Source: a virus (Duplodnaviria > Caudoviricetes). Taken from it: a stretch of 64,000 nucleotides of DNA. This document shows positions 4,158 through 64,000 of this stretch, one piece after another. The notes below the pieces were generated by a model, which was given only the letters and a program-made list of their open reading frames with translations, was not told the origin of the DNA and did not search any database. Within the stretch, counting starts at the first letter, position 1. Each line of letters opens with the position of its first letter. The position numbers and the translations under genes are program-made. Location: positions 6,791 through 70,790 of IMG/VR virus record IMGVR_UViG_3300023173_000014, one strand, 5' to 3'.

Positions 4158-4399
4158 GAAACCTCCTGTTGAGTGATTGAGGTGGCTGGGAGTGAAGCCA
4201 GCATACAAGCCCTTACCCTTAACCGGTGTAGGTAAGAGTTCAGACGGTATTCTCTAGGTCCGCGTCTTTCGGAACTCATTTCATGTACTTCGTATGTGAT
4301 CTGCATACAAAAGCCCAGGTCACCATCCTGGATTCACCTCAAAACTGGTTTAAATTCTTATTGGCTGATGCTTCTCTGTCTCGTGGTCTTTGAGCAATT

Positions 4400-4506
4400 C
4401 TGTGTACCTAAGCAGGGAATCGAACCCTGAACCTCTACTAACCGCTGCGGCCGCCATGTTGACCGACTTCTGCGGGGGTTTAAGGGGCCATGTCGTACCC
4501 TCAGAA
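4400..4506 (-). ncRNA. degenerate tRNA-like element 2 (canonical T-arm only)
   Basis: CAGGG-TTCGATT-CCCTG at 4429-4413; weak 6-bp acceptor-like pairing TCTGAG/CTTAGG; no CCA. Confidence 0.3.
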
Positions 4507-4530: not shown

Positions 4531-4635
4531 TGGATGGTAACGGAGGAATCGAACCTCAGAATCAGTATGCGCCTACTGTTCACGCCCTAAAGCAACCAGC
4601 TAAAGCATTCCAGGACTGCTGACGTGACGTTACCA
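4531..4635 (-). ncRNA. 105-nt tRNA-like RNA with CCA end and a long hairpin in place of the D-arm
   Basis: Perfect acceptor TGGTAAC(G)/(C)GTTACCA, T73, CCA; T-arm GAGG-TTCGATT-CCTC; CAGTA-GGCGCA-TACTG arm; about 47-nt irregular hairpin. Confidence 0.65.
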
Positions 4636-5489: not shown

Positions 5490-5864
5490 CTAGTGCAATG
5501 TGGTAGATGGCTGGTGGATGAACTTACCTTCCAGATCAAGAGGACGTTCTTCATCCTCTACTACGTCCTGTACTTCTTCCTGGTGATGTTCCAAAGCACG
5601 CTGAACTACAAGGTTTACTGTTCTTTCTGATGTCAGGGTGTCCCAGGTTTCTTGTTCGATGTCTTCGATGTATCCACCATCCTCTTGTACTACTGGGTAA
5701 GAGAAGGTAGCCAATCCTACTGTCCCTGATGGGACGCCTCGTACATCTTGTAAGAAGAATGAATACACCACTTCTGCAGTGCCTTCGTCAGAGTCAGAAG
5801 CAGGTACGCGAGTGACTCCAACCTGGGCACCACAAGCCTCTACTACTGTGAAACGGTCAGTCAT
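5490..5864 (-). CDS. acidic hypothetical protein
   Basis: Start reassigned to MTDRF (GGAGG RBS). Confidence 0.75.
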   Translation of the reverse strand: MTDRFTVVEACGAQVGVTRVPASDSDEGTAEVVYSFFLQDVRGVPSGTVGLATFSYPVVQEDGGYIEDIEQETWDTLTSERTVNLVVQRALEHHQEEVQDVVEDEERPLDLEGKFIHQPSTTLH

Positions 5865-6035
5865 AACTGCCTCCAAAGTTATCCACATTACTGCGGGAAA
5901 GATGTTGTTTGTTTTGTATACAGGAGAGAGAAGAAAAGTTCGTAATAACTGACGTAAGTTGTTGATTCTTGGTAGGGCGTTTCAGGAGGTAGTATTACAG
6001 AACTTTCTTCTGGGACCCGCATGGTTACGGGATCA

Positions 6036-6089
6036 AGCAGCGGATTGAAAATCCGCGTGTCGGTGGTTCGATTCCGCCTCTGGGCACCA
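6036..6089 (+). other. attP core: 3' 54 nt of a tRNA-Phe(GAA) gene
   Basis: AGCAGCGGATTGAAAATCCGCGTGTCGGTGGTTCGATTCCGCCTCTGGGCACCA contains anticodon arm (GAA), T-arm, acceptor 3' strand and CCA. The 5' half is absent. It lies 126 bp past the integrase stop. Confidence 0.9.
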
Positions 6090-6215
6090 CTTATTACAAG
6101 GGTTGTGGGGTTAGTGACCAATCCGGCAATCCAAGATTCGGAATACTCTTTCGGAATATAAAATCCACAAGAATTTACTGCTTTCCGCTCACAATGTGAG
6201 CAGTCTTGTGGATTT

Positions 6216-7322
6216 TTACTTAGTCGCCTTCCCTTTCTCAAGTTTCAGTCGATAGCGTTCTGCCATCTCCCGCGTCTTGTGTTTCAAGTCTTTACCATCT
6301 GTACCTGCCTTCTTCTTCAAGTCGTGATTCCAGAAGTTCTTCACGCCCGTAACACGCATCATGTTGTAACGTGCTTTGTTGATGGCAGACTGCGTAATGC
6401 GTTGACCTCGTGTGTTCTGTACGATCGGAGTCTGGGAAGGTTCCCTTCGATCACCTGGTTTGTGCAGAGCGGTGGCGAAATCGATAGCAAACTGCAAGTC
6501 TTCTGAAATTTCGACCAACTCTCCCCGAGAACCCTTTCCTCGAATACAGCGTAGGTACTTCTTACCGTCTTCGTACAGGATGTCTGACATGTTGAGGTTC
6601 CAGACCTCATGGACACGTAACCCACACAGGTAAGCGATCTGCCAGAACGGGTAGACCCATTTCTGCCGGCTTTGGAGTGCGGCTTGGAGTAGCGCATCGT
6701 AATCTACGTCTTCGGTATAGACCTGACGAATGTTCTCAGGGAACTTCATAGTCTGTTCTGCGGGATTACCCTGCATCCCTTCAACGTACTGGGTAACCCA
6801 CTTGAAGTAAGTGATAAGGCAGCTACGGTGCCGGTTAGCGACGATCGGTTTGCCTTCTGTTTCGATGACTTTACCGTTGGCTTTGACAACTTTCTGCGGA
6901 GTGTTCCAGTAATCCAGGTACTTACGTACATGGGTTGGACGTACTTCTTGTGGGTACATGGCACCGAAGACGTGACGTAGCCCATTGTGAGTCGCTCGAC
7001 TGTTCAGCTTGTCAGGATCTACGACAATGTTGATGTAAGTCTCGTACTGCTTGTCCTTTAACCGTGCAAACTCAGGGGAAGCCAGGTATTGATCAAACCA
7101 GTAACTGTTATTCTTCGGTTGGAGTTGTTCTGCAAGATGGTCCTCGTAAGCCTTGTAGAGAGCCGCTTTCACAGCAGCATCTTCGATGATCTTCCCGTTG
7201 ACCTTCTTAAACTTAAGTAAGGTCGTAGCTTTCGCTTTCAAAGGGCGATAAACATAACCAGTTTTATCGCGGTACACGCGTTCCGGCATCCACCGGTCAG
7301 CAGGTTTACGTGGACGTCCCAT
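6216..7322 (-). CDS. int: tyrosine recombinase / phage integrase
   Basis: MGRPRK N-terminus; GLR (Arg I), KG (Lys), HDLK box, H and ERY (Tyr). Confidence 0.93.
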   Translation of the reverse strand: MGRPRKPADRWMPERVYRDKTGYVYRPLKAKATTLLKFKKVNGKIIEDAAVKAALYKAYEDHLAEQLQPKNNSYWFDQYLASPEFARLKDKQYETYINIVVDPDKLNSRATHNGLRHVFGAMYPQEVRPTHVRKYLDYWNTPQKVVKANGKVIETEGKPIVANRHRSCLITYFKWVTQYVEGMQGNPAEQTMKFPENIRQVYTEDVDYDALLQAALQSRQKWVYPFWQIAYLCGLRVHEVWNLNMSDILYEDGKKYLRCIRGKGSRGELVEISEDLQFAIDFATALHKPGDRREPSQTPIVQNTRGQRITQSAINKARYNMMRVTGVKNFWNHDLKKKAGTDGKDLKHKTREMAERYRLKLEKGKATK

Positions 7323-7543
7323 TACAAGTTGAACCTCTCATCTGCGGTCGTGTTCTCTGTGGTGTCACGGAGGTCGACACTGGTTATCGGTACTATTGGT
7401 TTCCCATCGTTACGGGTAAAGAAACGGATACCGTAGTTTTCCAAGGCACGGCGTTGTGTAGCAAAACGTTTGGCGTTAGTCATATACACAACTTCGGCAT
7501 CGGTAAGGAATGCGCTGGGAGGGTTAGGAGCTGCATCGGTCAC
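7322..7543 (-). CDS. xis: excisionase-like protein (DUF4224-type)
   Basis: FLT.AEV..MT..K....Q...L...GI.F....DG.P.V pattern; coupled to int. Confidence 0.75.
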   Translation of the reverse strand: MTDAAPNPPSAFLTDAEVVYMTNAKRFATQRRALENYGIRFFTRNDGKPIVPITSVDLRDTTENTTADERFNL

Positions 7544-7592
7544 TGGGATTACTCTCCTGGTTTGTCTGTTTGTCTTTCTAAGGCGATAAAAA

Positions 7593-7618
7593 ACCCCGGA
7601 TCACTTATGTGCCGGGGT
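7593..7618 (-). terminator. intrinsic terminator after the holin
   Basis: ACCCCGG...CCGGGGT followed by T-run on minus. Confidence 0.8.
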
Positions 7619-7637
7619 CCCTAACCATCTGAGTACA

Positions 7638-7967
7638 TCACTTTCGAGCAGCGTTCCCTAAAAATCGGGAGTATCTTTTCAACATCTGCGTCTCGACTTC
7701 CTGGAACACTTTACCACCGACATGGGCTGCAAAAGCAACCGCAATAGGGAGAGTGAACCATTCTGGCGTCTCAGCAGGAAGAAAAGGGTATGCAGTGAAC
7801 ATCATGTAACCACACAGAATAGCGGTGAGAAACTCACTCACTACCCATAACAGTGAAGCCTGGTAACCGTTAGTTACCCGCCGTGCTATGGAAATGAAGC
7901 CACTGACCACACTTACAATGATCGCTCCTATTAGGCTTTGTACCTCTGAGAAATAATCATTTCCCAT
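7638..7967 (-). CDS. putative holin
   Basis: 109 aa, about 3 TM segments, basic C-terminus; holin-like pattern. Confidence 0.65.
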   Translation of the reverse strand: MGNDYFSEVQSLIGAIIVSVVSGFISIARRVTNGYQASLLWVVSEFLTAILCGYMMFTAYPFLPAETPEWFTLPIAVAFAAHVGGKVFQEVETQMLKRYSRFLGNAARK

Positions 7968-9011: not shown

Positions 9012-9203
9012 TTACTCAGTCCATTCGTAGTCGCAGGCGCGACACATGAACTCGTTGGTTAGGTCGGTTTCATCACGGTGGGTATGAAAACCTTCAGGCG
9101 CTACATCCTCACCTTCGCTGTCTACTGCTACAAAGAATGCGGCATATTTACGAGACAGTTGGTCCTGACATCCACACTTAGGACAGGAGTATCCAGTACT
9201 CAT
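9012..9203 (-). CDS. small zinc-ribbon protein
   Basis: CPKC ... CRAC. Confidence 0.7.
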   Translation of the reverse strand: MSTGYSCPKCGCQDQLSRKYAAFFVAVDSEGEDVAPEGFHTHRDETDLTNEFMCRACDYEWTE

Positions 9204-9439
9204 GCCGCAAGCAGTTCGCGTCTGAGACGATAAGAGATGGTGAAGCCAACAGCATCGGCTACTGCGAACAAGGTTCTTGCTTGAGGTGTTTCTACAGCAC
9301 CACGTAACCAGTTATTCAACGTGGCAGTAGTTACACCTGCGTAGTCGGCAACTTCCTGTTTGTCGTAAAGCTGGAGACGCTTTTTAACGTCTTCAAAGAG
9401 CTTACGTAGCTCTTTAGGAGTTTCTGTTGCAGGTGTCAT
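9200..9439 (-). CDS. XRE/Cro-family HTH protein
   Basis: QEVADYAGVTTATLNNWLRG helix-turn-helix. Confidence 0.8.
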   Translation of the reverse strand: MTPATETPKELRKLFEDVKKRLQLYDKQEVADYAGVTTATLNNWLRGAVETPQARTLFAVADAVGFTISYRLRRELLAA

Positions 9440-46654: not shown

Positions 46655-49600
46655 ATGGAACCATCCATCTACCAAAAACTTTCCGGGGCTACGTCCGAGA
46701 AAGCATTGAACGTGGAAGAAGCACGTACACGCAAACAACAAGCGTTGGATCGTATCAGCGCAAGCGTCGCTTACCGTAACTCATGGGAAGGTCAGGTTGC
46801 AGGTCTGGGAACGAATAGCGACCTCGCCCGTTCTTTCTCCTCCGGGGTTGTTGGAGGTACCGGCGCCATTGTTGATGGTGTTGCCGGATTAACAGGTAGT
46901 GAAGCCTTAGAAAACACAGGTGATTGGTTTGCTGAAGGTGCTCAAAATATCCGTCAATCACGTTCAGGTGAGTATCAGGATAACGTAACCAAGGCTACTC
47001 CTACTGGTGACCTGTTCTCCCCTAGTACCTGGGATCTTGGTGACGGTAACTTGGAAGGTCTTGGTGGATTACTGGCAGAGACCACCGGTCAGATGGCTCC
47101 TCAATTGGCTGCTGGTGCTGTAACCGGTGGTGTAGGTGCCGCTGTTGTAGGAGGGGCGCAAGCCGCAGGCGGAGCGTCCCGTCAACAATGGGAATACGTT
47201 GATGCGCTTTCTCACGATGAGTTGATGAACGAGTCTGGTTTGTACCGTGATCTGGTGGTTACCGGATCTTCACCTGAAGACGCCCGTAAAGAGGTTCGAG
47301 AAACTGCCGCCCGTGCCGCAGGTTTACCTGCTGCTGTTATTGGCGGTGCTGGTGGTGCGGCAACTCATTACATTTTGTCTGGTTTACCTTCCGCATTGTC
47401 TAAGGCTTTACCGGACACGTTACCAGGGAAAGTAGCGTCTCACGCAAGTACTGCTGGTATTAGTGCGGTAGAAGAAGGGATACAAGAAGCTGCCGAAGCA
47501 GTAACCTCCAAGAGCGTAGCTAACGCTGCCATTGATAGCGATCAACAAATCGATGAAGGTGTATTTACCGATCTGGTGTTGGGTGCAGGTACTGGCGGTG
47601 CAATTTCTGCTGGTAAGAGTAGCCTCAAAACCATTTCTGCAACGGCAGATTTGATCGATAAGGGGCTTGCCAAAACCAACCGTGCTGAAGCTACGCCTGA
47701 AGAGGTGGCAACACTCTCGGACCCTACCAGTGACGCATACGATCCCGTACGTGTTGCGCGTACTGCGTACAAAAAGTTGAAAGAAGATCCAGAGTCTGAT
47801 GGCGCAGCTCAGATTGATTCCTTGGTTTCCGAACAACAAAGCCTGATTGAAAATATCAAACTGCGTGGTATGGCCTCTACCGAGGAAGGACGTGCACAAC
47901 TCCAGGCTGTTGTTGAACGTGCAGAAGCTCGCTTGGTAGGCGAAACAGATACTGAAGAACGTTCTGCCCTTGAGAACACCCGCGATACATTTAACGCCCT
48001 TCTACAAGAAGGTGAGGATGCGGATACAGAGGTTATCCGTGCTGAGCTTGGGAAAGCTAACACTACCCTAAGTAAACTGGAGCGTTTCCGCGATGCTGCT
48101 CAAACCAACCAAGATGTAGGGGAGGATCTGCTATCTGAGTCTGGTACAGACACTTCAGAGACGCGTGTCAATCGTACTGTTGTACGTGCAATGAATAACC
48201 CTGATGCCTACACGCCAGAGCAACTGTCATCTCTTGTTACTCAGTCAGGAAACGGCCTGACCTCAAACCAACGCGCTTACCTTCGTGCTTTAGGTACTTC
48301 ACAGGAGCGTTTGAACACCACTGGTGATAATGCGCCGTCGTTGGCGAACACGCAGAAAGGGGTCTACTACGGTACCGATGGTTTCAAAGGCCTGAAACAG
48401 TACCGTAAAGATATGGCTACTGCCGTCCGTGGCGGTAATGTGGGTGCCATTAATCGAGAACTTCAAGGTATTCGTTTATTCCGTCAAAGCCATACCGAAA
48501 AAGCATCTGCAGTGCAGGCTGCCTATGCTGATGCACAACAAACAGGTTCACCGGTCCAGGTGGTACGTACTTTGGCAGGTAATTGGGAACCAAGTACAGA
48601 GACCCTTACTGACGCTGCTTTACGTGAGAATGGCGGCCTGTTGATCTCTGCTCGCTCTGGTTCTTTGGTATCCGCCATCCAGGAAGAAGCTGCGACTATC
48701 GGTGTCATCGAAGCAGAATTGAAAGCCTTAAAAGACGTGCGTAATCCCGTTACCGAAGAACCTACTAATTTTGGTGAAATTAGTACTTCGGAGACTTCAT
48801 CCTCTGAAACACAGACTGTACCTGCTTCGGAGCCTGCTGAAGGGTTAGTAGATACTGCAGAAAGTACGCCTGAACCTGAATCTGTACCCAATGTACAAGA
48901 GCTGATTGAAGAGGCGCCTACCGATGAGACGAATGACACAGAGGCAGAGGCAGAAGAAAGCACAGAACAGGAAGCGCCAGCAGAGCCTGAAGAAGTAGAA
49001 GCAGTTAAATTGGAAGCAGGAGCATTGCAGTTCCCTGCAACACCTTCTACCAAAGACGGGACCGAGGTTACAACTAACTTACTTCATAAGTACGGGAAAC
49101 AGTCAGCAGGTTCTTCGGAGGCTCCCAAGGCGTTAGTCACTATCAAAAACCTGGCTTCTTATGTGAAAGCAGAAGGTGCAAGTGTCTTGCAGGACCTTAC
49201 CGGTAAAGTTCTGACTGATACCGATCTCAGTGCGTTAAGTACCTTGTTAGAGGATGCAAATGTACTGGGGGATACCGTTCAAGTGTTGTTCCGTGAAAAG
49301 AAGGAAGGTTTCCAACACCAGGACTGGCTAGGGTACTTCAGTGAAGCCGGTGAACTTCCGGAGAATGTAACGACGGCTATCGGTATCGCTGCGATCGACT
49401 GGGCGGGTTCTAACGTCTCTTCACTTGGTTTCAATACTGATGAAGACATTCGTCGCATTCTTTCCATGGATAAGAGTGAGCAAATTCCGTCACATGCACG
49501 CAACACGTTACGTAAAGCCGGGGCACGTCGTGAATTTGTCGTACGCGACATTGGCCGTTCTGCTGTACGGATGTTGGGCATCTCACTGACGAATGCACCA

Positions 49601-52600
49601 AAGAACTATCGCAGCAATCTTGAGACTGCGTTGGGGATGTACGGTGTCATGGCACTACAAGAACAAGGCGTTCTTGGGCAGCAACGTGTAACGGGAATGC
49701 GCAGTTTGGTCACAGACACTCCTGATCCTGATGATAAGACTAATGCGACCTTTCTGCCGCCGGTACTGGAAGGTAATCGGCTCCCTTCTCAAAGCGCAGC
49801 ACTCGTGCGTGAAACCAAAGCAGTACGTAATCTCCTTCCGGTCGTGTTCGGAAGTGAGTCTGCTGTGGTAGGGCCAGTACTGGAGTCGCCTGAGAAGTGG
49901 AGCCAGAAACGGATTAACAACAGTTTACAGGGCGTACCTGCTGCTTTGGCTGAGGCACAAGAGGCGGCGTTTAAACGTCCCTGGCACATTCGCTCGAATG
50001 GTCCCGCTTCGTCTTTCCTGGCGCTATCTCGGGAAGCACAGGAGCGTATTGTTGGTATTCAGGCTGTGACTCCTGCAATGCACGTCAATGAACAAGAGCG
50101 TATCGAGTCTAAGAATGAGGGTTTACGTCGTGAACTGAACCACTTCCAAGACTTCATCGATACAGCTCCAGATGGGTTAAGTCAGCGATTCTGGTTACGC
50201 CCTGTCGTCTGGAGTGTCCAGCGTGCAGGCTTACAGTCACAACAGATAAACCCGCAGACCAGCAAAATCCATCGTCACCTGGTTTCCTTGAACGACTGGC
50301 GTACGCCGGTATCTACTGATCGTCGTAGCAAGAGCTTTCGTCGTTTCTCTCTGGCTCTGGCAGTAGGTCTCGGTATTGATGTGGATAAACAACCTCTTGA
50401 CCACACCTACAAGCAGATGCAGGACAAATGGGTTAAGTATGCGGAAGCTATTGATGTACTGATCCCAACATTGGACGGTGAGGTACTGACGTCTGAGCAG
50501 GAAGCGATTGTCGCAGAAGCCGTGGCAGATGCTGGTGAAGCAATGCACTCATTCGATGCCTTGGTGAACATGGCGCAATGGGAAAAAGCGAAACGTACAG
50601 GACAGAAAGAGTTCACCACAGACATCATGTTTGAAGTCGACGGTGTGACTAACGGACCTATGCTCACGCACTTATTCATGGGCGTAGAAAATACGGCCGA
50701 GCCTCTACAGAACCTTGTTGAACGGGGCGGTTTCTTCAAACGTGGTAGTGAGTTCAAGAGTTTTGGTGATTTCAAAAACCAGAAGAAGAATGACCTCTAC
50801 GAGACCTTGGCCACGACGTTACACCATGTCCTTAATGAGAAGGAACAGTCACCTGCAGGTCAGGCTATTCAGAGCCTGGTAGGTAATATCTTCGATGAAG
50901 AGACAGGTACCGCAGCGAAGGCCGGCCGTAATCTCGTGAAAACCCCGGTCACTGCATCCACCTTCGGTTCATCGATCGGAAAGGTCCTGAGCAGTATGGC
51001 GGACGAGGTACTGACCAAAGTAGAACGCCAGATTGAGGCTTTGGCTGCCGAGGGTGCAGATGCTTCTGAGTTAATCAGTAAAGTGAACACAGTCCTCCAA
51101 GCGGGCGGAGCCACGCAGAACGAAATGCTGCCGCCTACTACTGCAGTAGCATTACTCAAACACCGCTGGACACCAAAACAAGTTCAGGCTTTCAACAAAG
51201 GGTATGAAGGTACCTATGGACAGGCGGTAAAAGAAGCCATCGAACGTCAGTCTGATGGGTTCCTGGAAAACCGTAAAACCATGAACAACATTGCCAATAC
51301 TTCTTACGAAGCATTCAAGGTGGTGTATGAAGCAGTGCGTGAAGATTTTAAGAAAGAGTTACTGCGTAAGGGACGTGTTAAGTACCGGACCAACAATAAA
51401 GGCGAGCGTATTGCGATTGCTGATCTGACTCCACAACAAGAGAAAGAATTGGATACTCGCTTGAAGAACGCACTCCCTATTGTCCATACCTACTTCTCGA
51501 AATTAGAGGGTGTACTGCAGAACGGTCTTGGGGTTTATAAGCAAAAGAATGTTCCCGGTAGTACCGGTAATGGTGAAGAGTACTTACAAGAAACAAACGT
51601 TGCTCGTGCTGTAGATGTTACAGGCGACAAGCCGTATAAATCCATGTCAATTCAAGGACTTATCAACGTACTGGCAAGTCCAGGTGTAGGTACTTTGATC
51701 AAGCAGGTGCACTCGTCTGACAGTGCCATCTCAGCGTCTGTGTATGGAAAACTTCCAACACTGAATCTTCACGATGCGAACGGGATGGCGATAAACCAAA
51801 TTGAAGAAGTTGCTGAAGCGATGAATAAAGCAACCTTCGATGTCCTGGCTAATTACTCCATCCCAATGGAGAACGTCAGTAACCTAACGCGTGTTCTGAA
51901 AGGGACCACAGAACTACAGCAACGTTACCCGTCTGTTGCGAATGCCTTGGCGTCTGCAAACCTGGCTTCCCTCTTCCAAGGTAATTTAGAGAAGATGGTC
52001 GGTAAGGGTGCCGGCATGGATGCGTACCTGCGTATGGCCAAAGGAAATCCAATCAACGCGTACCTTATGGCAGCTCATCAGGCAGCCACACAAATGGAAC
52101 GGAACAAACTCCATACGTTGAAGAACGTTGGTCAAGTCAATCAGTATTCCTTCGAGGGCGGTCATTACCAGATCACGAAACAAGACCGTGACTTGCTGGA
52201 CACCCGACTGACTGAACTGGAGGCTTTACCTAACCCAGGTCAAACACTGGATACTCAATCCTTGGTTTCAGGGGAAGTCGCACCGCGTACAGTTACTGCA
52301 GAACCAGAGGAGCTGATCCCGTTAGTACGTGAGGCTCTCCGTAATGACCGAGGTAATCGTGGCTTACGTCAGGCACTGAAGCACCTTGTACGTGGTGACA
52401 CTACTGAAGAGGTAATGAAGAACCTGCCAGAGGCATCAGCTAAGGAAGTGACTGATCTTATTCTGAGCACAGAAGATAACCAGGCAGTGGCGAAAGACAA
52501 GTTCATGCTTACGAACCAAGCACGGGTTGTACTGCTGGCAGAACAGCTTCAAGGCCTGTACCCACAATGGGACGCTGACCTGACTTCCTTTGTTCGTTAC

Positions 52601-55600
52601 GTGAAAGAGGAGTCGAACACACCAAATGACGCTCTGGATCGTATGTTCTCTGGAGACGTGTTCCGTAAAACGGCCTTCACCGACTTCTTATCCCGTGCGC
52701 ATCAAGCATTTACTCCTACACCTTGGGGACCGTTAGGTGAGCCTGTTCAGAGCAGTGACCCCGAGTTGGTTGCTTACTTAAGTGAAGGTAAACGTACGTC
52801 AGGTGAGGTGTTAAAGCATTTGATTCGTACGTTACAAGCAGGCCCTTCCAAAGATACTCAAGAAGGTAAGTACTACGTGGAAATGGCCAAGCAGCTCTTA
52901 CGTGTGGCGGATCGTGACGTCCCAGTGAAACTGGTTACTCCGCGTACGAAGGAGGTAGAAGGAACCTACGACTACCCAGTTACCGCTGCTGCACTCTATG
53001 TGAAAGGTAAGTCCGAGCAGATCCTGGTTAAAAGTCCTGAGTTCAAATACTCCAACGTGACACCAGAAGCCTTGATACATGAGATGGTCCATGCAACCAC
53101 GACGGTAGAGATCCAGAACCCAGGTTCTGCACGGAGTAAAGCAGCCGTTGAACAGTTGGAGGCAGTTCTGGACGTTGTGAAAGGACATCTGGCTACTACA
53201 CCAGAGCAAGCAAAACGGTTTGCACCTGCGGTAACGAACGTAGACGAGTTATTGGCTTGGGGTTTAACCAACCGCGACTTTCAGAAGTATTTATCAGGTA
53301 TAACCTTTAAAACCGGGAAGAAGCCCGGAGGGCTTGTCTCTGCCCTTCGCTCCTTCCTCTCTGCTGTGGCTGATCTTTTAGGTATTAAGGACAGGAATAA
53401 CGCCTTAGCGGCCGTCGTCATTAATGGTGCTGAGTTGATGCAGTCTCGGGAACAGGACGCAGATGCACGTACAGAACGCGTAGTACGAAGCATGGACGTA
53501 GGTGATGGAACTTCTATCCGCGACTGGACAGCTAAAGAGGTACTCTCCGCTTTGAATGGTCCCGACGAACCGCGTTTAACCTCTCTGATGGATTCCATTG
53601 TAGAGAAGGTGCATGGGCCGGCAGGTACTGTGAAAAACGAAGTGGATTCAATGGCAGCGTACAATCCAAGAGACGTGTATCTATCTGCTTTGGTAGGCGG
53701 GAAGATGCCTTTCTACTCTCAAGTACGTAACCATTTCCGTCTGAGTGAGAAAGAGGCATTTGTTTTGGAGCAGGTGCAACTGTCTGTGGACGCTGCCTTG
53801 GAACCTACCTCCCTTCTCTACCGGGAAATGCGGAAACTACATAACGAAGCCAAGAAGGTACTTAAACCCTCAGACTTCCATCAAGGTGACTGGGCGCGAG
53901 CAAATACTCGAGAGAAAGCGCAAGCAGAGGCGCAATACAACTTCCTCTTTGATGTACGACCGGCAGCAGGAGGGCGAAGTAATTACCTGAGTGAGTTTGC
54001 TGCCTTGGTTTCCGTATACGCTCCTCTACGTGATCGGTTGAATCAACTGCAGGGAACTGACCTGGATACCCCTCAGTCTCTTGTAGAGCGTGTGGAAAAC
54101 TGGATCTCCCGTCTACTCGATCTTCTTGCAGGTAAACTGTACGGAGTTACCTCAGCAGGGTCCTTAGATAAGCGCATGGAAAGTTTGCTTCAGGGCCTGG
54201 GCCAGGTGGAGGCGAACCGTAAGATGACACTGGAGCATACCCGTGCTAACTCTCTCCAGGATCGTCTCGAAATGTTTAACACCGCTACTGATCGTTTCCG
54301 TGGGATGGTTGGAGCGTTAGGGGAACGCTTGCAAAATAACAGCTCAAGTTATGTAGGCGCTTTGGGGACCGTGCTTACTCTGAATGCGGATGATCGTATC
54401 GGTGCTTGGGAAACTCACGCGCAAAAAGTCCGTAACCGGATGTTTGAAGGGCGTCAGGGCTTGATTGCAGGGCTGGTCACTGAGATCAAGGGTGAGACTG
54501 AAGCCAACACTCAATCCTACGCCTTGCTCCGTGAAGCCAATAAAGTAGAGAAAGCCGTCGTACAGGAGACAGAGAATGTACGAAGACTAGCGCGTGAAAG
54601 TTTCGACGATGCCGGGTCGTACCTGACAGAGGAAGATACCTACGCTCTTACCGCGTCTCTAATGGAAACAGACCTGGTTTCTACGTTGGGTGAATACACT
54701 CTCAATGATTGGGAGAACATGATCCTGGACGATGATGCACTCGAGGCAGAGATCACACGACTGAGTGAACAAGTACGCACTCATTTTGGTGTGTACGGTG
54801 ATTACGTTGTTCGCGGTGCTTTAGATCTTGGTTTCTACCAGGCGACAGGGATCAACCGTAACCCTAACCTGGCACTTAATGTACATACCCTCCTCTCTCT
54901 GAAAGGTACGACAGAAGCTGGAAACATCGCAGCAGACCTGATTGATGAGCACGCGGGTGTTGTTGATGTCTTGGCTTCCTTAATGGCAGTACGCAGTACT
55001 TCTTACGAACACCGGGCAAAGACGTATGCCGTCATGCAACGCGAGAATGCGCGTGGTGATCAGAGCGGTGTACTGACTTTGCTACGGTTGCAGGAGAAGT
55101 TCAAAGAAGAATCCATGGAGAAGCTCTTCGGAGGTAATCCTCACTTGATGCGTAAAGGCTTCATTAAAGAGATTTTCAATCACCATAACGACGTGGTGGT
55201 GGCCTCTGAAACAGAAGGCCGTGACTTAGAGGCACTGGGTTATCGGAAAGCACATGAAGTACAAAGTGATCCAGCCGATCCTGACATCAACAGCAAGCAT
55301 ATTTACGTTGCTGATGGTGCGGGTTTACGTCGCCGTGAAACAGGTATCGTGAATTTCGTTAACAAGAAAGCACGAGGCTCATCGATCGATAGCGTTGATG
55401 TAACGGAAATCACCGAACAGAAACAGTCATTAGTTAAAGGCTTGTTTTCAATGCAAGGTGGGTACAACCCTGAACAGAACGGTGCACAGTACTTAGTACC
55501 TCTTCGTAATGACGCCGGGGATATTGTCGCCTATCGCTACACCATGACTACACATTCAAAAGATACGTTGATGGAACGTCATAACGCTTTTGATGATGTG

Positions 55601-56890
55601 CTTGGAGGTATGGCCGGCAACCTACTGAACAAGACGGAAACCAAAGAGACCAATACCAAGGCCGTGCAGTTACTTAAAGACCTCTACACGTCTGGTGATT
55701 ATGATCCTGAAGACTTTGTTCTGGTTCATGCTGATGCTGATGATCCCGAGATCAAAGAGACCTTCCGACTGATGTCTACCGATATGCGCAATGCCATTCG
55801 CCAGGTGTGGGGTGGTGACGAGATATACGTCCCTGTGGAGCTGTACGATCTTTTCTTTGGTTATCGGCGTAAGAGCCTGTCTGGGGTCTTCGATAAGCCA
55901 GAGGAAGCACGTAATGCGCTGGAACAGGTATTGGTAAATACGTTAGAAGCGTTCTTCGGTAAAGAAGCAGCCCTGAAATTGACGCGTGCCGAGAACATGT
56001 GGATGGAGGCTATCAACGTACTGAAGGACATCTTGGTTATTAAGAACCTGTTTACTCTCGTCGGTAACATTGTCAGTAACTTCTCGGTACTGGCTATGCA
56101 CGGGGTTTCATTGAAGGAGCAAGTTAAGAACCATAAGATCGCTACACAGTCGTTAGTGGACTATCAGCGTGACTCAGGTGAACTGCTACGACTTCAGAAA
56201 CTTAAGGATGCAGGGATTAATACCGGAAGAGGTCTCGAGCAAGACATTACACGCCTAGAGGATGCGATTGCACGTAATCCTATCAAGGTGATGGTAGATG
56301 CCGGTTTGGTGCACACGATCGTAGAAGACATCGAGAACGACGATGATCGGTTCAGTTATAAAACACGTTTTACGAATTGGGTGGAAGATAAAGCAGAGAA
56401 AGTGCCGGACGGCTTAAGGGAGGTAGGGAAACACCTGCTAATGACGCATGATACGCCTCAGTACAAACTGTTGTACCGAGCTACAAGCACCAGTGATTTC
56501 GCAGCACGCTTTGTGCTTTTGCGTCACTTAATGCAGCGTTCAAGTAACCCGCTTACTCAAGAAGAAGCGTTACGTCGTGTGGATTCGGAGTTCGTTAACT
56601 ACGATATTCCTACACACAGTACGATGGATTACTTTAACCGTATGGGGTTCGCTCTCTTTACCAAATACTACTTACGGATTCAGAAAGTGCTATTCACGTT
56701 GTACCGTGAACAACCTCTACGATCATTGCTGGTTTCCTTATTGGGGAACATGATTGATGGGGTGCAGACCCTTTCGGATTCTGCGTTCTGGGGTCGGTTT
56801 GGTAATCTTACCTCATCAGGGGTCCTGGAGCTTCCAGGGGCTGTCGACGAGATCGTACCGTTGAAGGTACTCACTTCTTTGACAGATTAA
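46655..56890 (+). CDS. virion-encapsidated RNA polymerase (N4 gp50-like)
   Basis: 3411 aa; FEVDGVTNGP (motif A), R.LVK.PV....FG (motif B), LHDA (motif C); no Cys seen by eye; HEMVH in the C-terminal region. Confidence 0.97.
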   Translation: MEPSIYQKLSGATSEKALNVEEARTRKQQALDRISASVAYRNSWEGQVAGLGTNSDLARSFSSGVVGGTGAIVDGVAGLTGSEALENTGDWFAEGAQNIRQSRSGEYQDNVTKATPTGDLFSPSTWDLGDGNLEGLGGLLAETTGQMAPQLAAGAVTGGVGAAVVGGAQAAGGASRQQWEYVDALSHDELMNESGLYRDLVVTGSSPEDARKEVRETAARAAGLPAAVIGGAGGAATHYILSGLPSALSKALPDTLPGKVASHASTAGISAVEEGIQEAAEAVTSKSVANAAIDSDQQIDEGVFTDLVLGAGTGGAISAGKSSLKTISATADLIDKGLAKTNRAEATPEEVATLSDPTSDAYDPVRVARTAYKKLKEDPESDGAAQIDSLVSEQQSLIENIKLRGMASTEEGRAQLQAVVERAEARLVGETDTEERSALENTRDTFNALLQEGEDADTEVIRAELGKANTTLSKLERFRDAAQTNQDVGEDLLSESGTDTSETRVNRTVVRAMNNPDAYTPEQLSSLVTQSGNGLTSNQRAYLRALGTSQERLNTTGDNAPSLANTQKGVYYGTDGFKGLKQYRKDMATAVRGGNVGAINRELQGIRLFRQSHTEKASAVQAAYADAQQTGSPVQVVRTLAGNWEPSTETLTDAALRENGGLLISARSGSLVSAIQEEAATIGVIEAELKALKDVRNPVTEEPTNFGEISTSETSSSETQTVPASEPAEGLVDTAESTPEPESVPNVQELIEEAPTDETNDTEAEAEESTEQEAPAEPEEVEAVKLEAGALQFPATPSTKDGTEVTTNLLHKYGKQSAGSSEAPKALVTIKNLASYVKAEGASVLQDLTGKVLTDTDLSALSTLLEDANVLGDTVQVLFREKKEGFQHQDWLGYFSEAGELPENVTTAIGIAAIDWAGSNVSSLGFNTDEDIRRILSMDKSEQIPSHARNTLRKAGARREFVVRDIGRSAVRMLGISLTNAPKNYRSNLETALGMYGVMALQEQGVLGQQRVTGMRSLVTDTPDPDDKTNATFLPPVLEGNRLPSQSAALVRETKAVRNLLPVVFGSESAVVGPVLESPEKWSQKRINNSLQGVPAALAEAQEAAFKRPWHIRSNGPASSFLALSREAQERIVGIQAVTPAMHVNEQERIESKNEGLRRELNHFQDFIDTAPDGLSQRFWLRPVVWSVQRAGLQSQQINPQTSKIHRHLVSLNDWRTPVSTDRRSKSFRRFSLALAVGLGIDVDKQPLDHTYKQMQDKWVKYAEAIDVLIPTLDGEVLTSEQEAIVAEAVADAGEAMHSFDALVNMAQWEKAKRTGQKEFTTDIMFEVDGVTNGPMLTHLFMGVENTAEPLQNLVERGGFFKRGSEFKSFGDFKNQKKNDLYETLATTLHHVLNEKEQSPAGQAIQSLVGNIFDEETGTAAKAGRNLVKTPVTASTFGSSIGKVLSSMADEVLTKVERQIEALAAEGADASELISKVNTVLQAGGATQNEMLPPTTAVALLKHRWTPKQVQAFNKGYEGTYGQAVKEAIERQSDGFLENRKTMNNIANTSYEAFKVVYEAVREDFKKELLRKGRVKYRTNNKGERIAIADLTPQQEKELDTRLKNALPIVHTYFSKLEGVLQNGLGVYKQKNVPGSTGNGEEYLQETNVARAVDVTGDKPYKSMSIQGLINVLASPGVGTLIKQVHSSDSAISASVYGKLPTLNLHDANGMAINQIEEVAEAMNKATFDVLANYSIPMENVSNLTRVLKGTTELQQRYPSVANALASANLASLFQGNLEKMVGKGAGMDAYLRMAKGNPINAYLMAAHQAATQMERNKLHTLKNVGQVNQYSFEGGHYQITKQDRDLLDTRLTELEALPNPGQTLDTQSLVSGEVAPRTVTAEPEELIPLVREALRNDRGNRGLRQALKHLVRGDTTEEVMKNLPEASAKEVTDLILSTEDNQAVAKDKFMLTNQARVVLLAEQLQGLYPQWDADLTSFVRYVKEESNTPNDALDRMFSGDVFRKTAFTDFLSRAHQAFTPTPWGPLGEPVQSSDPELVAYLSEGKRTSGEVLKHLIRTLQAGPSKDTQEGKYYVEMAKQLLRVADRDVPVKLVTPRTKEVEGTYDYPVTAAALYVKGKSEQILVKSPEFKYSNVTPEALIHEMVHATTTVEIQNPGSARSKAAVEQLEAVLDVVKGHLATTPEQAKRFAPAVTNVDELLAWGLTNRDFQKYLSGITFKTGKKPGGLVSALRSFLSAVADLLGIKDRNNALAAVVINGAELMQSREQDADARTERVVRSMDVGDGTSIRDWTAKEVLSALNGPDEPRLTSLMDSIVEKVHGPAGTVKNEVDSMAAYNPRDVYLSALVGGKMPFYSQVRNHFRLSEKEAFVLEQVQLSVDAALEPTSLLYREMRKLHNEAKKVLKPSDFHQGDWARANTREKAQAEAQYNFLFDVRPAAGGRSNYLSEFAALVSVYAPLRDRLNQLQGTDLDTPQSLVERVENWISRLLDLLAGKLYGVTSAGSLDKRMESLLQGLGQVEANRKMTLEHTRANSLQDRLEMFNTATDRFRGMVGALGERLQNNSSSYVGALGTVLTLNADDRIGAWETHAQKVRNRMFEGRQGLIAGLVTEIKGETEANTQSYALLREANKVEKAVVQETENVRRLARESFDDAGSYLTEEDTYALTASLMETDLVSTLGEYTLNDWENMILDDDALEAEITRLSEQVRTHFGVYGDYVVRGALDLGFYQATGINRNPNLALNVHTLLSLKGTTEAGNIAADLIDEHAGVVDVLASLMAVRSTSYEHRAKTYAVMQRENARGDQSGVLTLLRLQEKFKEESMEKLFGGNPHLMRKGFIKEIFNHHNDVVVASETEGRDLEALGYRKAHEVQSDPADPDINSKHIYVADGAGLRRRETGIVNFVNKKARGSSIDSVDVTEITEQKQSLVKGLFSMQGGYNPEQNGAQYLVPLRNDAGDIVAYRYTMTTHSKDTLMERHNAFDDVLGGMAGNLLNKTETKETNTKAVQLLKDLYTSGDYDPEDFVLVHADADDPEIKETFRLMSTDMRNAIRQVWGGDEIYVPVELYDLFFGYRRKSLSGVFDKPEEARNALEQVLVNTLEAFFGKEAALKLTRAENMWMEAINVLKDILVIKNLFTLVGNIVSNFSVLAMHGVSLKEQVKNHKIATQSLVDYQRDSGELLRLQKLKDAGINTGRGLEQDITRLEDAIARNPIKVMVDAGLVHTIVEDIENDDDRFSYKTRFTNWVEDKAEKVPDGLREVGKHLLMTHDTPQYKLLYRATSTSDFAARFVLLRHLMQRSSNPLTQEEALRRVDSEFVNYDIPTHSTMDYFNRMGFALFTKYYLRIQKVLFTLYREQPLRSLLVSLLGNMIDGVQTLSDSAFWGRFGNLTSSGVLELPGAVDEIVPLKVLTSLTD

Positions 56891-63807: not shown

Positions 63808-64000
63808 TTACGCAGAACAAGCTACGCACTCATTGTTAATCACTACACCACTACGAGAGTAGATGTAGTACAGGCTCAGGATGTTTTCGTCCAAGAAAGC
63901 CTTGCGATGCAAGCGAGCAATCCGTTCTTCATCACCGTCTTCAGAGACGTAGAAGTTCAGGGATTGTCCCTGACACAGATACGGTTGACGTGGAGGTACA
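63808..64000 (-). CDS. nrdA: ribonucleotide reductase alpha subunit, C-terminal fragment
   Basis: Hand-translated ...RQPYLCQGQSLNFY...LHRKAF...LYYIYSRSG...ECVACSA* (QGQSLN, LYY and terminal CxxC). Confidence 0.85.
   Translation of the reverse strand, partial: VPPRQPYLCQGQSLNFYVSEDGDEERIARLHRKAFLDENILSLYYIYSRSGVVINNECVACSA

Follow-up and report, generated by a model that had tools for sequence, protein, structure and literature searches.

A predicted lysogeny cassette with a tRNA-Phe attachment site in an uncultured marine N4-like phage

Phage N4 is the textbook example of a lytic phage whose own RNA polymerase enters the cell with it. Here, we describe a locus in an uncultured marine N4-like phage in which the genes for a tyrosine integrase (int) and an excisionase-like protein (xis) adjoin a copy of the 3' part of a bacterial tRNA-Phe gene. 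We consider it probable that this locus is a lysogeny cassette present in the free form, that is with its phage attachment site (attP) undivided, and that it encodes a lambda-style Int/Xis system recombining in or near the anticodon loop. The stretch of DNA analysed, hereafter the window, is 64,000 nt long and represents bases 6791-70790 of the 70,790-bp IMG/VR record IMGVR_UViG_3300023173_000014, which is rated complete by CheckV. In window coordinates, the main parts of the locus are the following:

6216..7322, minus strand: tyrosine integrase gene (int), 368 amino acids (aa), matching PF00589 (E 5.9e-12) and phrog_1 "integrase" (E 2.6e-21)
7322..7543, minus strand: excisionase-like gene (xis), 73 aa, matching DUF4224 (PF13986, E 1.6e-9) and phrog_1266 "excisionase" (E 1e-10)
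5889..6215: predicted attP region, non-coding, 330 nt, consisting of the core and the P and P' arms
6036..6089, plus strand: attP identity block, matching tRNA-Phe(GAA) positions 23-76 at 54/54 nt and running from the 3' strand of the D-stem to the CCA
5889..6035, plus strand: P arm, non-coding, with a third repeat, TTCGTAATA, at 5939..5947
6137..6158, plus strand: candidate arm-type Int-binding sites in the P' arm, two direct TTCGGAATA copies 13 nt apart

The identity block carries most of the argument. An initial annotation, made from the letters of the window alone, had reported a 54-nt 3' fragment of tRNA-Phe(GAA) ending in CCA past the int stop and had proposed a comparison with bacterial tRNA-Phe genes. 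Its coordinates proved right, and when the 54-mer was compared with tRNA-Phe(GAA) genes at 120 genome loci the match was exact in most of them. One refinement concerns orientation, as the fragment is on the strand opposite int: the block is convergent with int and lies 126 nt past its stop. The match is not due to chance, because the 48-nt version found in a related phage (L124, see below) already reaches a BLAST E-value of 4e-24. The block is present in a single copy in the phage genome and has the features of a tRNA-type attachment site, extending from inside the tRNA to its 3' end, adjoining int and being kept in relatives. Identity had been said to start before the anticodon arm, and the block does begin 5' of the loop, at position 23; the identity common to all relatives starts at position 29-30, just 5' of the anticodon loop. 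This start is compatible with a crossover in the anticodon loop, without locating it.

The closest relatives of the integrase are found in L124 and L125 (TARA scaffold), at 90% aa identity, and in L150, at 72%. In all of these, as in the window, a 3' fragment of tRNA-Phe is found about 125 nt beyond the int stop and inverted relative to int, so that three independent lineages (the window, L124/L125 and L150) have kept the fragment. Identity to tRNA-Phe spans 48 nt in L124 (positions 29-76), and the fragment of L150 corresponds to another natural tRNA-Phe variant, whose anticodon stem contains CCCCG. When the window is compared with L124, the synonymous sites of int are saturated, differing at 70% (pS, the proportion of synonymous differences, 0.70; about 30% identity), and despite this no difference is found in the core at 6042..6091 (50/50) and identity in the non-coding arms is 77-83%; we therefore regard core and arms as being under constraint. 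The P arm alone is 113/147 identical, far above the roughly 30% at the int synonymous sites. In the same comparison the ratio of nonsynonymous to synonymous change (dN/dS) is 0.033 for int and 0.056 for xis, values that indicate strong purifying selection on both genes. L124, L125 and the window also have the gene order deaminase, holin-like gene, xis, int and attP in common.

Within the arms, the TTCGGAATA repeats at 6137..6158 are identical in L124, and L150 has a covarying tandem pair, TTTTCGGAAA twice, at a matching distance from the core. Their consensus TTCGKAATA occurs at four sites in the 64 kb, three of which are in the attP region (5939, 6137 and 6150), against an expectation of 0.76 per window. 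By analogy with known systems, repeats flanking a core in this manner form the pattern expected of arm-type Int-binding sites, and we list them as candidates for that role.

Both proteins can be assigned to known families, in agreement with the earlier assignment of a tyrosine integrase and a coupled excisionase-like gene. Int scores 46.1 bits against the PF00589 model, above the cut-off of 27.1, and its catalytic positions (R236, K263, H333, K336 at the position of Arg II, H348 and Y357) are invariant in 14 family members. The second arginine is replaced family-wide (14 homologues) by an invariant lysine, in the motif HDLKKKAG at Int residues 333-340. This replacement is probably a subfamily trait and not a defect, because HDLK is also found in the integrase of the temperate coliphage mEp390 (HDLKAKG) and in integrated family members (L122 and L147). 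The xis product matches three "excisionase" PHROGs, and the TAA stop of xis shares one base with the int start codon (TAATG), so that the DUF4224 gene is a predicted excisionase that would be translationally coupled to int. A DUF4224 partner is also present in L124, L147, L148 and L150.

The wider integrase family, at 41-53% identity, belongs to lambdoid temperate phages that carry CI/S24, Cro and a DUF4224 partner. In four integrated copies (L122, L147, L151 and L154), int is convergent on a full tRNA-His gene beside host genes, and in seven free forms a 47-51-nt 3' fragment of tRNA-His is found that starts at position 26-30. Based on these integrated copies and free-form fragments, the family appears to target tRNA genes at a fixed sublocation, and the subclade of the window would have moved to tRNA-Phe. 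In two distant family members (L155:9167-9213 and L157:467-514) the tRNA-His 3' fragment is co-oriented with int and not convergent, and hence the module geometry varies within the family. No close relatives of Int other than the window's own record were found in IMG/VR viral contigs, and a family-profile scan of metagenome contigs returned just relatives of 41-50% identity, all of the tRNA-His type.

Concerning the genome that carries the cassette, the assignment to N4-like (Schitoviridae-type) phages is based on a giant virion RNA polymerase gene, N4 core genes and a genome of about 70 kb. The hallmark gene is the following:

46655..56890, plus strand: virion RNA polymerase gene, 3411 aa, matching phrog_2206 with 1717 bits over residues 62-3400, an N4 hallmark

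Both subunits of the N4-like RNA polymerase (RNAP II) are present (phrog_2051 and phrog_2166), as are the N4-type portal (phrog_1216), major capsid protein (MCP; phrog_1357), primase (phrog_2135) and DNA polymerase (phrog_17). Since the portal is at most 53% identical to that of any cultured N4-like phage, Litunavirus and Pollock being the nearest, the phage represents a distant N4-like lineage. The attP is flanked by phage genes on both sides, with tail fibre, ribonucleotide reductase (RNR) and thymidylate synthase genes on one side and deaminase, ligase and DNA polymerase genes on the other. The record has a 126-nt identical terminal overlap (record 1-126 and window 63867-63992, ending 8 nt short of the record end), consistent with either a circular assembly or a terminal repeat, although the record carries the label "linear" in IMG/VR. 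The exact int is found on 13 contigs, 11 of which are in the 50-200 kb length class, and among the matches listed, three of these 11 long contigs are about 70.78 kb in length, in free form, identical over the attP region, and different in start point, sample and assembler. From the differing starts, the terminal overlap and the CheckV rating it follows that a complete phage genome was assembled in free form, as the initial annotation had also concluded from the phage genes on both sides. The genome was thus abundant enough for complete assembly in at least three, and probably 11, samples. Samples with contigs of the 70.78-kb genome include JGI 3300017967 and 3300023116, ENA ERZ27313105 and SRR7154899.

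Taken together, the parts of the locus suggest how the cassette would work. Int, by means of its arm-binding N-terminal part, would pair attP with the tRNA-Phe gene of the host, and strand exchange would take place inside the block common to both, the anticodon loop being the most likely point. The 3' part brought by the phage would then complete the tRNA gene at the left junction (attL), with int convergent on the tRNA, and the displaced 3' part of the host gene would come to lie at the right junction (attR), about 70 kb away; Xis together with Int would reverse the reaction. The cassette may have been acquired from lambdoid temperate phages, with a shift in target from tRNA-His to tRNA-Phe, and would have settled in the slot past the holin-like gene where related N4-like phages carry a P4-type integrase module. 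The features surrounding the cassette at this end are:

6160..6216, minus strand: terminator-like hairpin with a U-rich run, directly past the int stop and inside the P' arm, with a 13-nt perfect inverted repeat (-26.6 kcal/mol, z -6.2)
7589..7622, minus strand: terminator-like GC-rich hairpin with U6, between the holin-like gene and xis (-22.9 kcal/mol, z -2.9)
7638..7967, minus strand: holin-like gene, matching phrog_6854 (E 8.7e-31), 59-72% identical in the N4-like relatives L127, L128 and L158

The xis-int cassette is accordingly bracketed by terminator-like hairpins, and the one at 7589..7622, which a simple terminator scan overlooked on account of its long loop, would insulate it from the upstream operon.

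Evidence that such a slot can serve integration comes from L127 and L128, two N4-like sequences with an MCP 66-67% identical to that of the window and with open reading frames (ORFs) of 3727 and 3381 aa, respectively, that match the virion RNA polymerase. They are syntenic with the window up to the holin-like gene, after which they carry an unrelated P4-type integrase and an AlpA-like gene (L127:11300-16219 and L128:11600-17610 compared with window 5889-7600). The L127 record, IMGVR_UViG_3300025195_000023 (L127, L158 and L167), is classed as a provirus by IMG/VR. In a bacterial contig of 367 kb, its integrase gene immediately follows folD and the genes for tRNA-Pro, tRNA-Arg, tRNA-His and tRNA-Leu(TAG), and at the other prophage end tail-fibre genes are followed by a 22-nt repeat of the tRNA-Leu 3' end and then by tig, clpP, clpX and lon. 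The provirus, seen in L158:9754-11233 and L167:6369-6736, is bounded by a 22-nt direct repeat, TCAAGTCTCTCCTCTCGCACCA, and judging from their positions the two copies make up a complete pair of attL and attR flanking an N4-like prophage. Integration of a related N4-like phage is seen in several large bacterial contigs. The glutaminyl-tRNA synthetase of the provirus-bearing contig is only about 60% identical to those of five candidate gammaproteobacteria; the surroundings of the integrated relative are gammaproteobacterium-like. This provirus resembles the window phage in belonging to the N4-like clade (MCP identity 67%, dCMP deaminase identity 66%, gene order shared as far as the holin-like gene) and in having a tRNA-targeting lysogeny module in the matching slot. 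It differs in its integrase, which is of the P4 type, 410 aa long, with an Arm-DNA-bind_3 domain and accompanied by the AlpA-like small gene, and in its attachment site, which is formed by the last 22 nt of tRNA-Leu(TAG) with int co-oriented with the tRNA. That one slot is occupied by either of two unrelated integrase modules suggests a hot spot at which such modules are exchanged.

Other readings of the locus have to be weighed against a working lysogeny cassette. Phage-encoded tRNAs are carried by many large lytic phages, and the region could be taken for a functional phage tRNA-Phe gene that supplements host translation, with no role in attachment: ARAGORN calls a 75-nt tRNA-Phe(GAA) at 6015..6089, and the Rfam tRNA model passes its gathering score there (34.2 bits against 29). 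This is very improbable, given that the 21 nt at the 5' end (6015..6035) match no real tRNA-Phe, the true 5' half (positions 1-22) being GCCCAGATAGCTCAGTCGGTAG, that two acceptor-stem pairs are mismatched, and that Infernal gives 34 bits where genuine tRNAs, scored alike, reach 67-71 bits. Moreover, L124 has a differing 5' part and no tRNA call, yet its 3' 48 nt are identical, and the fragment adjoins int in a geometry found across the integrase family. The full-length calls were rejected as over-calls in which 6015..6035 is wrongly read as the 5' part; tRNA finders will mislabel an attP of this kind as a phage tRNA-Phe gene, which should be kept in mind in annotation. A 9-nt likeness between 6014..6024, GACCCGCAT, and the tRNA-Phe leader of Arsukibacterium/Rheinheimera is not collinear with the tRNA and was judged to be chance. 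We give even less credence to an assembly chimera in which the integrase region of a host or of an unrelated temperate phage had been fused to an N4-like genome. Elsewhere, the integrase family occurs in prophages of the lambdoid siphovirus type, as such a chimera would lead one to expect, but the exact int on 11 contigs of 50-200 kb, the agreement at attP of the three listed contigs of about 70.78 kb from differing samples, assemblers and start points, and the shared gene order in the independent L124 and L125 all speak against it.

A more serious challenge is that the cassette is intact but the phage practically lytic, with int and attP recently acquired or rarely used, as has long been suspected of the module in integrase-bearing marine T7-like phages, or with Int serving another purpose such as the resolution of concatemers or a transient, unstable integration that falls short of true lysogeny. 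Several observations weigh in this direction and against a temperate phage. Only free-form genomes were seen among the copies examined, and no integrated copy of the phage or of its 72-90% relatives was found when metagenome, viral and selected bacterial genomes were scanned with patterns and proteins; the search for attL/attR junctions suggested by the initial annotation found none in these genomes and contigs. The exact P'-arm pattern common to the window and L124 had no match in metagenome or viral contigs, and an exact look-up for attR with the 132-aa protein on the P-arm side (5490..5888) found it not on record. Among about 50 ORFs compared with Pfam and PHROGs, no CI-type/S24 repressor or other maintenance function was recognised, and the sole regulator candidate is the following:

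9200..9439, minus strand: Cro/CI-type helix-turn-helix (HTH) protein, 79 aa, matching PF01381 (HTH_3, E 5.4e-7), with weak matches to repressor PHROGs

Transcription of N4-type early genes depends solely on the RNA polymerase that the virion delivers, and with such a dependence the restart of a prophage is left unexplained. The hairpins that bracket the cassette may in addition keep its expression poor, and it is by analogy that the crossover is placed and the arm sites are given their role. Opposed to these points are the purifying selection on int and xis, the perfect conservation of the tRNA core across relatives saturated at synonymous sites, and the integration of the related N4-like phage in bacterial contigs. 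On balance, we hold a practically lytic phage to be unlikely, and the statement of the initial annotation that the phage lysogenises a gammaproteobacterial-type host stands in part: the xis-int-attP locus is intact and such a host is the better guess, but the integrated copy that would confirm lysogeny was not found. A 19.3-kb contig of the same phage (L165, Logan SRR7154899) breaks off 24 nt inside the tRNA block; a mixture of attP and attL forms was weighed as the cause and rejected as evidence, because any bacterium with the same tRNA-Phe, host or not, would break a k=31 assembly graph at that point.

If the lysogeny cassette does function, the question is raised of how a prophage in need of a virion-delivered polymerase stays silent and then restarts. 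One speculative answer, to which we assign a low probability, is that the clade keeps lysogeny without a classical immunity repressor. The prophage would then be silent by default since its early genes need the injected virion polymerase, induction would proceed by a route, driven by host RNA polymerase, to the virion polymerase or to xis-int, and the slot past the holin-like gene would act as a plug-in site that exchanges modules, of the lambda type for tRNA-Phe here and of the P4 type for tRNA-Leu in the relatives.

The host is less clearly indicated than the target. The 54-mer had been proposed as a barcode for host prediction, a proposal that has to be weakened because it is identical in many gamma- and alphaproteobacterial genera, including at least Rheinheimera, Alishewanella, Arsukibacterium, Thalassolituus, Simiduia and Fluctibacter as well as the alphaproteobacteria Roseibium/Labrenzia; among the at least 120 loci listed, about 42 are from Rheinheimera and about 23 from Roseibium/Labrenzia. 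An att core derived from a tRNA identifies the target gene and not the host genus. Beyond the core, one short stretch was considered:

6090..6096, plus strand: CTTATTA, directly past the CCA, giving a 61-nt match with Thalassolituus maritimus 5NW40-0001 (L060) only

Extensions past the CCA of 7, 6 and 6 nt (L060, L070 and L050; 10, 9 and 9 nt when counted from the end of the 40-nt search pattern) were, among the loci listed, seen at those of the Thalassolituus/Oceanospirillaceae type only, and L124 departs from the window past the CT of this stretch. With an estimated p of about 0.02-0.05 for 6-7 extra matching bases among about 100 independent tRNA-Phe flanks, the 61-nt match is a weak hint at a host. 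An extended att pattern (T-arm to CCA plus 12 nt) had no match with up to 3 mismatches in 301 genomes of the T. maritimus order, the centre genome included, which leaves the hint isolated, and Int had no match at E 1e-5 in two T. maritimus strains, Oceanospirillaceae RS342 and DS_MAG134. A gammaproteobacterial host is nevertheless our better guess, owing to the phage G+C content of 48%, the mostly gammaproteobacterial hosts of the portal-neighbour phages and the integration context of the relative.

Other traces of integration at the same gene were observed in these bacteria. In T. maritimus DSM 24913 (NZ_FTOH01000007.1, about 20.9-31.8 kb; L038 and L105) about 10.9 kb separate a complete tRNA-Phe gene from a 3' fragment of 42 nt or more on the same strand, and the pair is best read as marking a further island integrated in tRNA-Phe; that genome yielded no close homologue of the window's integrase. 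Additional orphan 3' fragments of the same tRNA-Phe are present in Simiduia aestuariiviva CECT 8571 (L055/L063), about 4 kb from the full tRNA-Phe gene, and at two other loci (L064 and L029). The gene appears to be a frequent integration target in these bacteria.

With regard to known systems, integrase-bearing N4-like genomes have been known since 2023, and the initial annotation rightly called integrase-bearing relatives not unprecedented: an analysis of IMG/VR described 54 N4-like genomes with lysogenic hallmark genes, including 14 marine uncultivated viral genomes (UViGs), together with N4-like proviruses in 40 bacterial contigs, mostly of Moraxella (Zheng et al. 2023, mSystems, PMC10654107). 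That study dealt with gene presence and proviral regions, and in its main text tRNA comes up a single time, in connection with host prediction, with no description of attachment sites, so that these genomic hints came without attachment sites or mechanism. The phage described here shares with those UViGs the N4-like genome carrying lysogeny genes and the origin in IMG/VR, and is one more of its kind; what is added is the anatomy of the attachment site, the tRNA-Phe target with its apparent shift from tRNA-His, and the swap of two unrelated integrase modules in the slot of one clade. The locus as proposed is a fully specified system, consisting of int, xis, a 330-nt attP with candidate arm sites and a 54-nt target.

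Among cultured phages, the best-matching integrases are those of mEp390 (JQ182729) and Salmonella phage ST64B, at 25% identity. In mEp390, the end of a small excisionase gene likewise overlaps the start of int, attP lies within about 100 nt of the int stop, and HDLK replaces HxxR. Both phages are distant in sequence and have siphovirus-type genomes with CI/Cro immunity regions, none of which was recognised in the window phage. The lambdoid phages of the tRNA-His type (integrated L122, L147, L151 and L154; free L148, L152, L153 and L123) share the integrase family, the DUF4224 partner, a fragment that begins in the anticodon stem and an int that is mostly convergent on the tRNA, and they differ in their target and in a backbone with CI/S24, Cro and GpJ-like tail genes that is not N4-like. 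Among GenBank phages, nucleotide matches to the att region were limited to the Burkholderia P2-like phages phiX216, phiE52237 and PhiBP82.3 (88% over 60 nt), whose attP is annotated as a 45-bp tRNA-Phe(GAA) 3' end; these are unrelated myoviruses with other integrases and a betaproteobacterial tRNA-Phe variant. Integrase-bearing T7-like pelagiphages reportedly integrate by means of int and a tRNA-derived attP, although they represent another phage family with other integrases. They too come from a podovirus lineage deemed strictly lytic in which, according to a preprint (bioRxiv 10.1101/410191), some members integrate.

Finally, two tRNA-like relics with a T-arm-like GGTTCGATTCC were noted on the minus strand of the window at 4395-4470 and 4531-4635, 1.4-1.6 kb from attP. 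They received no call from ARAGORN or the Rfam tRNA model, and a weak mascRNA-type match was recorded at 4406..4451.

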